Origin: Nitrospinaceae bacterium
Lineage (GTDB): Bacteria > Nitrospinota > Nitrospinia > Nitrospinales > VA-1
DNA length: 17,746 bases
Direction of reading: 5' to 3'
Assembly: GCA_029261515.1 (NCBI GenBank)
Contig: JAJDBE010000199.1
Span: forward strand, 1-17,746
The translations under genes and the position numbers were made by a program. Each line of letters starts with the position of its first letter. The first letter of the stretch is position 1. Below, one piece after another: positions 3,578 to 5,072 of this stretch. The notes under the pieces were generated by a model. That model searched no databases. It saw only the letters and a program-made list of their open reading frames with translations, and had not been told where the DNA came from.

Positions 3578-4443
3578 AGCAACAATGAACCTCCATAAAA
3601 TAAAGCCAAAAATGCAAAAATCCCAGCAGTAAGCTTTCCCGAATTCTGGTTTTGCCCGAGATGAGAATGGCCCTGGGAGTCGAATCCAATAAAAGCACCC
3701 AAAGCAATAATCCCGATTGCTATCTGGATTTGCAAAACTGGATCTGTTGAGAAAAACAGCATCAATGCCAGAAGCGGTACGGTGAGCATCAACCCCTTGT
3801 ATAGCAATCTTTCGAAGGGAATAAAATGTTCAATTAATTGCATACTAAAAGCGAAGTACCAGACCAAAAGGAGGGCTTGAAGCCACCACTCGGAAGCAAA
3901 GAGTAAAATTGGAAGTATGCAGACCAATGAACAGAAAACCGCATGGCTGAGACCCATTTTAAAACGCTCCCAGTACCCATATTCTAGAGCCTGCATGTCT
4001 TTGGACTTGCGTAAACCGTTATCCAAAAATTCCTTTAAGTCGGTAAAGTAAACGGGACCGTAAATTCCCTCCCAACCATGTTCTTTCAGGATTTTTCTTT
4101 TAACCCCAGCCACAGACAATTGCGGCAGTATCAAACGAGTATGATTCACCAGCTCCCTAACATTATAAACCTTTAAATGGGCGAGAACCGATTCGGTGGT
4201 AAAAATACCTTCAGCCGCGGCACACCAGACGTTGGTGCCTTTGGTATTGACCACCAGAAGAAAGCAATCTATATGCTGTTTTTCCAAATAATTTTTTAAA
4301 TGCCGGACTGTGTAATCAAAATTGCAGGTGACCAGGACCGGCGAAGATTTATCTGGATGACCAATGGCAATGGTTTCGGGTTCGCAGGGAAACCGTGCAA
4401 ATCGAAATAGCGTTTGATAAATGTCTTTAATCCAACCGATCAT
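3574..4443 (-). CDS. HgcA-like protein: N-terminal corrinoid-binding (CFeSP large-subunit-like) domain with a Cys cap-helix motif, plus a C-terminal domain of about 5 TM helices
   Basis: 289 aa. Residues 71-79 read NVWCAAAEG (nt 4207-4233, hand-checked as aac gtc tgg tgt gcc gcg gct gaa ggt). The HgcA signature is N(V/I)WCA(A/G)GK, so Cys74 is conserved. Flanking segments resemble HgcA as I recall it (PVLVTCNFDYTV..., HTRLILPQLSVAGV, YGPVYFTDLKEFL). Residues about 163-289 form roughly five hydrophobic helices. The ATG overlaps the methyltransferase stop (ATGA at 4440-4443). Confidence 0.75.
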   Translation of the reverse strand: MIGWIKDIYQTLFRFARFPCEPETIAIGHPDKSSPVLVTCNFDYTVRHLKNYLEKQHIDCFLLVVNTKGTNVWCAAAEGIFTTESVLAHLKVYNVRELVNHTRLILPQLSVAGVKRKILKEHGWEGIYGPVYFTDLKEFLDNGLRKSKDMQALEYGYWERFKMGLSHAVFCSLVCILPILLFASEWWLQALLLVWYFAFSMQLIEHFIPFERLLYKGLMLTVPLLALMLFFSTDPVLQIQIAIGIIALGAFIGFDSQGHSHLGQNQNSGKLTAGIFAFLALFYGGSLLL

Positions 4444-5072
4444 TTTTTAATTTCCAGAAGGATGAACATGCCTAACATAAACGGTTGGCAGTTGACTATT
4501 TCCATGCCCGCCTGCCGCACATCATCATCGAAATTGGAAATCGCGTTGGTGGTGTTTTGGGTCACGATCCAGGTGAGAAGCCGCATGGGTAATCTGAAGG
4601 CATAGTAAAAAAATTTAGCTAACAAATTTTCCGGAATTATTTCGTCACCGATAAGGACCTTACCTCCCTTCTTCAAAGTTCTTTTGATTTGTTTCAATAC
4701 ATGAAGTCTTTCTGCGCGGGTCAATTCGCTGAATGCGAGAGTGCTTAAGATAATATCGAATGATTCATCCTCCAAATGTTCGTCCAGATTGCTAAGGCTG
4801 ATGTTAAGGAAATTCGCAGAAGGAGAATTTCTCTTTGCCACTGCAAGCATGCCGCTGTTGGCATCTACCCCGGTCACCTGCGCCCCTCGTTCAATGCACA
4901 TTTGTGCCAATGTGCCGGTACCGCAACCCAAATCGAGGACCCGATCTCCGGGATGTACATGATCTGCAATTTGACGTTTGATTTTCGTCAACGATCCCAG
5001 AGTCAATAGACCCATCCCAATATCGTAGCGTTCGGGACGGGATTCAAGGATTTTCATATAAACAAACGACAT
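4440..5072 (-). CDS. Class I SAM-dependent methyltransferase (UbiE/Methyltransf_11/25-like)
   Basis: 210 aa. Motif I is RVLDLGCGTGTL, post-I is VTGVDANSGM, motif II is SFDIILST and motif III is LKKGGKVLIGD. A GAGG sits 10 nt upstream of the ATG and overlaps the merT stop. Its own stop overlaps the HgcA-like start. Confidence 0.85.
   Translation of the reverse strand: MSFVYMKILESRPERYDIGMGLLTLGSLTKIKRQIADHVHPGDRVLDLGCGTGTLAQMCIERGAQVTGVDANSGMLAVAKRNSPSANFLNISLSNLDEHLEDESFDIILSTLAFSELTRAERLHVLKQIKRTLKKGGKVLIGDEIIPENLLAKFFYYAFRLPMRLLTWIVTQNTTNAISNFDDDVRQAGMEIVNCQPFMLGMFILLEIKK

Follow-up and report, generated by a model that had tools for sequence, protein, structure and literature searches.

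A 17,746-nucleotide (nt) stretch of Nitrospinaceae DNA (contig JAJDBE010000199.1; at its full length, hereafter the window) encodes on its minus strand a class I S-adenosylmethionine (SAM)-dependent methyltransferase, CpaM, and immediately behind it an HgcA-like corrinoid membrane protein. Across the genomes and metagenomes surveyed here, CpaM and the HgcA-like protein form an obligate, co-inherited unit, often a single polypeptide, that is specific to the HgcAB-like paralogue. The linkage as such is already known and is not a new discovery, because it is catalogued in NCBIfam (NF043040/NF043039) and is drawn in Fig. 1 of Villar et al. As judged from its sequence, the window adds a further member to this known module, in which the biochemical role of CpaM is predicted. 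The new elements are comparative ones: a strict split between CpaM-linked and true HgcA proteins, the abundance of fusions, a conserved small gene (s62) next to the pair, and a MerR-type promoter in front of the operon. The pair, the small gene and their junctions are located as follows:

5072..4440, minus strand: CpaM, class I SAM-dependent methyltransferase, 210 amino acids (aa)
4443..3574, minus strand: HgcA-like corrinoid membrane protein, 289 aa
3577..3389, minus strand: s62, conserved Cys-rich protein, 62 aa
4440..4443, minus strand: ATGA junction between the CpaM stop and the HgcA-like start, kept as NTGA among homologous pairs
3574..3577, minus strand: ATGA junction between the HgcA-like stop and the s62 start, kept in all Nitrospina-type loci examined

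Co-inheritance and fusion of CpaM and the HgcA-like protein

Phylogenetic co-occurrence of the methyltransferase with HgcA-like genes, named by the first-pass annotation of this DNA as a check on its proposal of coupling, proved strongly positive from both sides of the pair. From the methyltransferase side, one genome per species was scanned with an alignment of 15 diverse CpaM homologues (A1) as query, and all open reading frames (ORFs) of the 80 loci returned were scored with our own hidden Markov models (HMMs) of CpaM and of HgcA-like proteins. CpaM scores were bimodal over these loci, lying either at 175 bits and above or at about 130 bits and below. Of the 44 CpaM genes with enough downstream sequence, 43 had an HgcA(B)-like gene directly downstream or fused to them, as against 0 of 33 generic methyltransferases (Fisher p = 5e-21). 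Among 46 family genes, 10 are fused in frame to an HgcA-like domain and 32 are followed at once, on the same strand, by an HgcA(B)-like gene. Locus L021, whose contig ends 75 nt past CpaM, is not among the 44, and L004, which is cut inside CpaM, is not among the 46. Both CpaM genes that appear partnerless re-scored above the NF043040 cut-off; one of them, in L053, was rejected as a partnerless case, since its downstream 422-aa ORF, missed by our own HMM, is by Pfam a divergent protein with CdhD and Fer4 domains, and the other, in L042, is weighed below.

On the corrinoid side, two clean classes emerged from a scan of metagenomes with an alignment of HgcA-like proteins (A2). The true hgcA class, which has the cap helix NVWCA[AS]GK and no ferredoxin fusion, was counted where at least 650 nt lay upstream, and a CpaM gene accompanied 0 of its 16 loci. 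By comparison, CpaM was upstream of or fused to 46 of 47 HgcA(B)-like genes of the non-GK class (p = 5e-14), in which the cap helix ends in G, or in E in the Nitrospina type. These 47 loci comprise 35 with a full CpaM gene immediately upstream, 7 fusions, 4 with a decayed CpaM and 1 without. No CpaM-linked partner with GK occurred in either scan; a CpaM partner and the loss of the cap-helix Lys therefore together define the paralogue clade. The CpaM family itself is spread over many bacterial phyla and extends into the archaea.

Some loci depart from the simple arrangement. Remnants of CpaM, internally deleted, truncated or frame-shifted, stand beside HgcAB-like genes in L091:832-1197, L098:911-1318 and L129:66-1766, and the CpaM/HgcAB-like module evidently decays in some lineages. 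A Thermoanaerobaculales metagenome-assembled genome (MAG) carries two CpaM/HgcAB-like pairs on the same strand, about 2.6 kb apart (L030:607-5581).

Read on the minus strand of the window, the CpaM stop codon TGA (4442..4440) overlaps the HgcA-like ATG (4443..4441), and the HgcA-like TGA (3576..3574) overlaps the s62 ATG (3577..3575), so that both of the 4-nt ATGA overlaps noticed in the first reading of the sequence are present. The 20 nt in front of the HgcA-like ATG (sequence ...CTGGAAATTAAAAAATGA) contain no GGAGG-type Shine-Dalgarno sequence, and translation of the HgcA-like protein by termination-reinitiation fits this arrangement. The 4-nt overlap is the commonest overlap class in prokaryotes, and by our own count from the ORF table it is present at 4 of about 15 same-strand junctions of the window. 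The other two are at 10303..10623/10620..11096, where a 106-aa ORF is joined to an AHSA1/SRPBCC protein, and at 14761..16470/16467..17408, where an SdhA-like flavoprotein is joined to the next ORF; such overlaps are common in this genome. A single 4-nt overlap is thus not beyond chance, and what exceeds chance is its conservation. An NTGA overlap (ATGA, GTGA or TTGA) is found in 23 of the 32 unfused pairs of the genome scan and in 21 of the 36 unfused pairs of the metagenome scan, or roughly 60-70% of them, with many phyla represented, and the remaining unfused pairs are mostly within a few nucleotides of each other. The second overlap, between the HgcA-like gene and s62, is kept in 9/9 Nitrospina-type sequences (the window and eight loci) and also in a lineage with a 60%-identical HgcA-like protein.

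The two genes form one in-frame ORF at 10 loci of the genome scan and 7 of the metagenome scan, in Chloroflexota and elsewhere. A search with this single-ORF form returned at least 120 protein clusters that are CpaM-HgcA-HgcB triple fusions of about 590 aa (methyltransferase, CdhD and 4Fe-4S parts), from FCB-group bacteria, Calditrichota, Marinimicrobia, Deltaproteobacteria and others. An AlphaFold 2 (AF2) model of one triple fusion, built from alignment A5, reached a mean predicted local distance difference test (pLDDT) value of 82 and a predicted template-modelling (pTM) score of 0.82; these scores suggest that the modelled domains are held in a fixed arrangement, and the model outside the methyltransferase part matches the published HgcAB model in Foldseek. 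That the overlaps are ordinary operon compaction, with neither a complex nor functional coupling behind them, draws its appeal from the high frequency of 4-nt overlaps noted above, but this explanation is effectively refuted by the co-occurrence and fusion data, in that adjacency, order and overlap are conserved across phyla and many in-frame fusions exist; we give it next to no chance. The coupled expression and probable stoichiometric complex that had been suggested on the strength of two consecutive overlaps now find their footing in the conservation of the overlaps and in the abundant CpaM-HgcA(-HgcB) fusions. Separately, in a Nitrospina-type contig (L088:372-1802) a single ORF runs from the end of a DUF169 gene through CpaM to the HgcA-like gene, with the last CpaM residues and the first 31 residues of the HgcA-like protein deleted; this ORF may be an assembly artefact or a natural deletion-fusion.

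Family membership of the two proteins

The window methyltransferase belongs to NCBIfam family NF043040, "corrinoid protein-associated methyltransferase CpaM", which it matches at 257 bits against a cut-off of 180 and over profile positions 1-215 of 216; its Pfam matches are Methyltransf_25/11. Ten other family members were re-scored on the same model, of which nine reached 233-296 bits, above the cut-off, while a divergent Promethearchaeota fusion (L046) fell below it at 139 bits. In A1, neither motif I (LDLGCGTG) nor the Asp of motif II (D70) varies, and the window protein has both intact. A PDB sequence search yielded no CpaM structure, only generic class I cores, and among single-domain Foldseek matches the closest folds to the methyltransferase domain of a fused relative are Coq5/UbiE-type and other small-molecule methyltransferases. 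The nearest homologues of both CpaM and the HgcA-like protein come from Nitrospinaceae or Nitrospina, at 78-94% identity.

The HgcA-like protein begins with a CdhD-type corrinoid domain (PF03599 over residues 17-131) and continues into a hydrophobic C-terminal domain, with at least four hydrophobic helices in all. Its cap helix reads GTNVWCAAAEG, in which the Cys is Cys74 (A2), and the NVWCA motif, including this Cys, is invariant in A2. The best NCBIfam model is NF043039 (HgcAB_like), at 233 bits over profile positions 1-233 of 350 and short of the cut-off of 285; the true HgcA model NF040863 gives 138.7 bits, below its cut-off of 275. By sequence, the only PDB relative is the large subunit of CFeSP (PDB 2h9a, 4djd). 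The ferredoxin domain with two CX2CX2CX3C motifs is absent from the HgcA-like protein, which ends in a hydrophobic helix at the point where the ferredoxin part of the fused proteins begins.

The high-stringency rule of Hg-MATE for true HgcA is the motif N(V/I)WCA(A/G/S)GK (PMC10087281). The window protein departs from it, having NVWCAAAE, with the Cys kept and GK replaced. Nor does an hgcB gene stand next to it, since the downstream gene is s62, whose product has 5 Cys, no ferredoxin motif and no family match. The protein has instead the traits of the HgcAB-like clade, namely an NVWCA cap helix that lacks GK and a CpaM partner, and published trees place Nitrospina sequences inside the fused-HgcAB clade (Lin et al., PMC10083202). 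On these sequence grounds the Nitrospina HgcA-like protein is assigned to the CpaM-linked, HgcAB-like paralogue clade. Presence of a CpaM partner together with absence of the cap-helix Lys offers a simple, checkable rule for separating this clade from true hgcA, and cpaM could be used in metagenomic surveys of hgcA to flag paralogues. With the NF043040/NF043039 family at large, the window pair shares order, adjacency and overlap. It differs from the NF043039 fusions in lacking the whole ferredoxin (HgcB) part, in having a cap helix that ends in AAAEG rather than AAGGG, in the conserved gene for a 62-aa Cys-rich protein that comes next, and in its MerR-type control.

Methyl donor, substrate and comparison with known systems

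Putative loading of the corrinoid from SAM by the methyltransferase is the most economical reading of these data, and it matches the family name chosen by the NCBI curators. We see about an even chance that CpaM is a dedicated SAM-binding partner of HgcA(B)-like proteins that methylates their Co(I) corrinoid, from which the methyl group would pass to a soft metal. As we envisage it, the pair would be translated by termination-reinitiation in roughly equal amounts and would assemble as a membrane-attached complex. CpaM would bind SAM and transfer its methyl cation to the Co(I) of the corrinoid in the N-terminal domain of the HgcA-like protein, with Cys74 of the cap helix serving as the putative lower axial ligand. 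The methyl-Co(III) thus formed would methylate a thiophilic metal or metalloid, for whose presentation in the ferredoxin-less Nitrospina variant the Cys-rich s62 and/or a YHS protein encoded nearby are candidates, and a metal-bound MerR-like activator would induce the operon. The more far-reaching proposal, that CpaM and the HgcA-like protein (with s62) make up a self-contained, MerR-switched machine that runs from SAM through the corrinoid to metal methylation without HgcB, and in which a Rossmann-fold methyltransferase methylates protein-bound cobalt, is doubtful, although we would not call it far-fetched.

Part of this chemistry has a direct precedent. Purified true HgcAB takes the methyl group directly from SAM with no extra methyltransferase (Zheng et al. 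2024, PMC11588087), so that the methylation of an HgcA-type corrinoid from SAM is no novelty; the premise of the first-pass annotation, that the enzyme loading HgcA with methyl is encoded away from hgcAB loci, is superseded by this work. True HgcAB, as in P. mercurii ND132, shares with the window protein the CdhD-type corrinoid domain, the NVWCA cap helix with its Cys and the transmembrane domain, and SAM is its demonstrated methyl donor to Co(I) (PMC11588087). The window system differs from it in the replacement of the GK of NVWCAAGK, in the lack of HgcB and in the CpaM partner. Since SAM is the donor for true HgcAB, a comparison of systems with and without a SAM-binding subunit could serve to locate the SAM site and define the mechanism.

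A number of observations weigh against corrinoid loading by CpaM or against mercury as the acceptor. A separate SAM-binding subunit is chemically dispensable, because true HgcAB uses SAM without a methyltransferase. We know of no class I Rossmann methyltransferase that methylates protein-bound cobalt, and the loading of a protein-bound corrinoid by such an enzyme has, to our knowledge, not been described biochemically. The NF043040 model itself is typed 'hypoth_equivalog' by NCBIfam. In the literature, no paper was found that uses the name CpaM and none, experimental or descriptive, besides Villar et al.; a 2026 preprint on halomethanes mentions neither the fused clade nor CpaM. The linkage is not without exceptions, for one HgcAB-like gene (L110) has no CpaM and one CpaM gene, in Streptoalloteichus (L042), truly has no partner. 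With respect to the acceptor, every tested cultured organism with a fused HgcAB-like gene formed no methylmercury (Podar 2015, Gilmour 2018, both as cited in PMC10087281), which makes Hg an improbable substrate of the ancestral module. Regulators beside the pair outside the Nitrospina type are of the TetR family and not MerR, and mercury as a general substrate is weakened by these regulators and by the negative cultures together. A metal role in Nitrospina is favoured, as far as the gene content of the locus indicates, by the MerR-type switch, a MerT-like gene, the YHS protein and s62.

The isolated CpaM bears on a further alternative, according to which CpaM is an independent SAM methyltransferase that acts on a small molecule or metalloid in the manner of ArsM, TehB or UbiE, or on the product of the corrinoid protein, so that the two would be consecutive enzymes. 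In sequence and fold CpaM is closest to UbiE/Coq5 and other small-molecule methyltransferases, it gives weak matches to ArsM and TehB models, and the L042 gene shares its actinomycete cluster with a radical SAM enzyme but with no corrinoid protein; moreover, fusion also occurs, and often, between merely consecutive enzymes, which counts against reading the fused forms as evidence of corrinoid loading. Against it stand a co-occurrence of 98% in both directions and a fixed order, CpaM then HgcA-like, in bacteria and archaea, which is unusually tight, and the lack of any other conserved pathway gene beside the pair. ArsM shares the class I SAM methyltransferase core with CpaM, but ArsM models score the window protein at 51-54 bits, far under their cut-offs of 263-575, and ArsM-type cysteines, which bind As(III), are not conserved. 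The only conserved Cys of the CpaM family is that of the GCGTG SAM motif (A1). The lack of conserved metal-binding cysteines in CpaM speaks against an ArsM-like role, and thereby against the direct methylation of a metal or metalloid that the first-pass annotation had held out as its alternative. On balance we judge an independent methyltransferase to be unlikely. In Streptoalloteichus hindustanus, the gene in question (L042:5977-6717) scores 246 bits on NF043040, has no corrinoid protein within 6 kb, and is flanked by genes for a large radical-SAM protein, an alpha/beta hydrolase and a TauD-like protein, in what may be a biosynthetic cluster.

Transfer of the SAM methyl cation to Co(I) is the chemistry of the MetH reactivation domain and of class B radical-SAM/TsrM enzymes. 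The reaction proposed for CpaM is the same; in those systems, however, SAM is bound within the same polypeptide, by a fold unique to MetH or by a radical-SAM barrel, while the SAM binder here is a class I Rossmann methyltransferase of UbiE/Coq5 type. This likeness admits a reading in which CpaM is a repair factor only, re-methylating the Co(II) corrinoid with SAM and an electron as in MetH reactivation, with the catalytic donor being a methylated metabolite or, say, methyltetrahydrofolate (methyl-H4folate). SAM-dependent reductive reactivation of cob(II)alamin is established in MetH, the linkage and fusions would be equally expected of a repair partner and of a catalytic one, the ferredoxin domain of fused forms could supply the electron, and oxidation of Co(I) would be frequent in a microaerophile such as Nitrospina. 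Yet the SAM domain of MetH has a fold different from that of class I methyltransferases, true HgcAB uses SAM catalytically, and no second methyltransferase or pterin-binding (MeTr-type) gene is conserved beside the pair in about 45 loci; we regard a repair-only role as quite unlikely. The CFeSP/MeTr system of the Wood-Ljungdahl pathway (AcsCD/AcsE) likewise has a PF03599 corrinoid protein loaded by a separate methyltransferase subunit. MeTr, however, is a pterin-binding TIM barrel that uses methyl-H4folate, CpaM a SAM-dependent Rossmann enzyme, and the acceptor for the HgcA-like protein is not acetyl-CoA synthase.

Strict pairing and fusions would also suit a dedicated maturation enzyme, one that methylates a residue of the HgcA-like protein or the lower ligand of the corrinoid once and not in each cycle. 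Such an enzyme would be needed only in sub-stoichiometric amounts, which fits poorly with the conserved translational coupling and with the at least 120 clusters in which the partners are permanently fused. No candidate target residue conserved specifically in the CpaM-linked class was identified; the mark of this class is the loss of the cap-helix Lys. We consider this role improbable, and corrinoid loading from SAM by CpaM remains the reading that we prefer.

The 'hgcA-like' genes of Nitrospina are widely counted as the main candidate for methylmercury formation in oxic sea water, although all Nitrospina lack hgcB, the function and activity are unconfirmed, and no hgcA-like-positive Nitrospina is in culture (Lin et al., PMC10083202). 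In any heterologous test, the Nitrospina hgcA-like gene should be accompanied by cpaM and the 62-aa gene, and probably by the genes for the YHS and DUF169 proteins too. If the self-contained machine from SAM to metal methylation outlined above were real, hgcA-like genes tested without cpaM and the small gene could not be expected to work; if, in addition, Hg(II) were the Nitrospina substrate, the module would supply the missing enzymology of methylmercury formation in oxygenated ocean water.

MerR-type control and the Nitrospina-type accessory genes

Around the pair and s62, the window contains the following elements:

6229..6642, plus strand: MerR-family regulator, divergent from the operon (Pfam MerR, MerR_1, MerR-DNA-bind)
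6190..6220, minus strand: MerR-type promoter/operator of the operon, with -35 TTGAAC at 6220..6215, a 19-nt spacer and -10 TATATT at 6195..6190
6144..5431, minus strand: DUF169 protein, 237 aa, Cys-rich, first gene of the operon (PF02596, 83 bits)
5415..5083, minus strand: MerT-like membrane protein, 110 aa (PF02411 MerT, 36.7 bits; cut-off 32.9)
3423..2971, minus strand: YHS/TRASH-type Cys-rich putative metal-binding protein, 150 aa (PF04945 YHS, 46.5 bits)

The same-strand ORFs of the operon, from 6144..5431 through 3423..2971, thus measure 237, 110, 210, 289, 62 and 150 aa in order. A spacer of 19-20 bp that holds a dyad operator is a hallmark of MerR-family metal-activated promoters, and this layout is present here as TTGAAC, 19 nt with the dyad, and TATATT. 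The dyad at 6196-6218 is a perfect 11+11 inverted repeat, GAACCTGTAGT-A-ACTACAGGTTC, 100% complementary, and covers the spacer together with the last four bases of the -35 hexamer. The window contains its 19-nt core once, with 0 occurrences expected from 200 shuffles. L002 and L083-L086 keep the TTGAAC-dyad-TATATT layout in front of the operon, and the start of L088 likewise matches the dyad core; in these related loci the full promoter string is matched by fuzzy search with 1-2 substitutions, the exact string being absent. A sigma-70-like candidate promoter for merR on the plus strand (6165-6192) overlaps that of the operon. The operon is, on this sequence evidence, driven by a predicted MerR-type promoter, and because such promoters are metal-activated, both trigger and substrate are likely to be Hg(II) or some other soft divalent metal.

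The identity of that metal is less clear from the regulator, whose NCBIfam scores do not discriminate Hg, Cu and Cd/Pb types because they are nearly equal, and all below the equivalog cut-offs, for MerR (119 bits), CueR (116) and CadR/PbrR (115); the Hg-specific MerR equivalog TIGR02051 asks for 150.85 bits against the 119 obtained. One Cys of the regulator stands in ...DNTCGQV..., and its C-terminal loop has the pattern C-x7-C-P-I-L; an extra Cys of this kind is typical of divalent-metal sensors, and we read the regulator as a putative sensor of a divalent thiophilic metal. Similarly, the window dyad resembles operators of the CadR/PbrR/ZntR type as much as merO. In common with mer operons, the window has a divergent MerR-family gene, a 19-bp-spacer promoter with a dyad, and a MerT-like protein with a CC pair; it differs from them in that merA, merB and merP are all absent from it and in that the MerR and MerT matches lie below equivalog cut-offs.

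A Nitrospina 'HgcA-like' locus was reportedly published by Gionfriddo in 2016. Fig. 1 of Villar et al. (bioRxiv 10.1101/648329) shows Nitrospina scaftigs with MerR1, DUF169, a UbiE methyltransferase, HgcA-like and YHS genes, and MerR control is proposed there; the window has the same genes in the same order, with proteins 78-92% identical to those of Nitrospinaceae, and adds the MerT-like gene, lacking in most relatives. The available passages of that work make no mention of the small gene, of the two ATGA couplings, of a MerR-type promoter or of the methyltransferase as a clade-wide partner absent from true hgcAB.

The small gene s62 is present with its ATGA overlap in the window and in L001-L003 and L081-L085 (the 9/9 Nitrospina-type sequences above), a set that includes a Nitrospirae MAG whose CpaM is only 54% identical. 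A complete 3.09-Mb genome has it as well, and the lineage with the 60%-identical HgcA-like protein, from which MerR and DUF169 are absent, has a 63-aa homologue. MKK..DW and CECTRSK are invariant in s62, and a CC plus a further C recurs downstream. At a synonymous divergence (pS) of about 0.55, the ratio of nonsynonymous to synonymous divergence (pN/pS) is 0.05-0.13, and s62 is therefore a real gene under purifying selection; public pipelines also call it as a gene. No Pfam or NCBIfam family is matched. Many fused HgcAB-like proteins (e.g. P0114, P0118, P0103) carry a conserved NNFR.GVCSCPTC after the ferredoxin and, behind it, a linker and an acidic CC..C tail that recalls the C-terminal CC of HgcB. 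Descent of s62 from this Cys-rich tail (CSCPTC ... CC..C) was rejected as homology (hhalign probability 0.1%), the resemblance being a loose one of Cys pattern only.

The remaining operon genes are less constant. The YHS protein is conserved in Nitrospina-type loci; its longest ORF overlaps s62 by 35 nt (3389-3423) in a different frame over an A-rich stretch, and in L083 (2201-3650 region) s62 and YHS form one in-frame 192-aa ORF, which may reflect fusion, ribosomal slippage or sequencing error. DUF169, for which the PDB holds no relative by sequence, is conserved in Nitrospina-type loci and absent from other CpaM loci. The MerT-like protein has three hydrophobic segments; one CC pair is placed in the first of its hydrophobic helices and another in a loop. 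It scores about 41 bits on the NCBIfam MerT/MerTP models, far under their cut-offs. Of the Nitrospina-type sequences examined, the window and L003 (there on the opposite strand) are the only ones to have its gene, which is accordingly an accessory and not a core part. The conserved core of the ferredoxin-less variant is CpaM, the HgcA-like protein and s62, with YHS nearby.

Over about 45 loci, no accessory gene is general around the pair besides CpaM and the HgcAB-like gene themselves, MerR, DUF169, YHS and s62 being confined to the Nitrospina type. A TetR/AcrR regulator stands beside the pair in about 10 non-Nitrospina loci, mostly directly upstream of CpaM (e.g. L005, L007, L016, L019, L022, L027, L034, L043), and ABC-transporter ATPases are near the pair in about 6 loci.

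The gene string of the window sits on the minus strand in a low-GC (guanine plus cytosine) island at about 2900-6700, with about 44% GC against about 53% in the flanks. The flanks hold housekeeping genes, among them those for two HtrA proteases, LigA and SdhA, and the island is placed between the two htrA genes and ligA. In the 3.09-Mb Nitrospinaceae genome (L162), the same island has SIR2 on one side and HD and CbiQ on the other; the low GC content and these unrelated flanking genes suggest that the island is mobile or was horizontally acquired.

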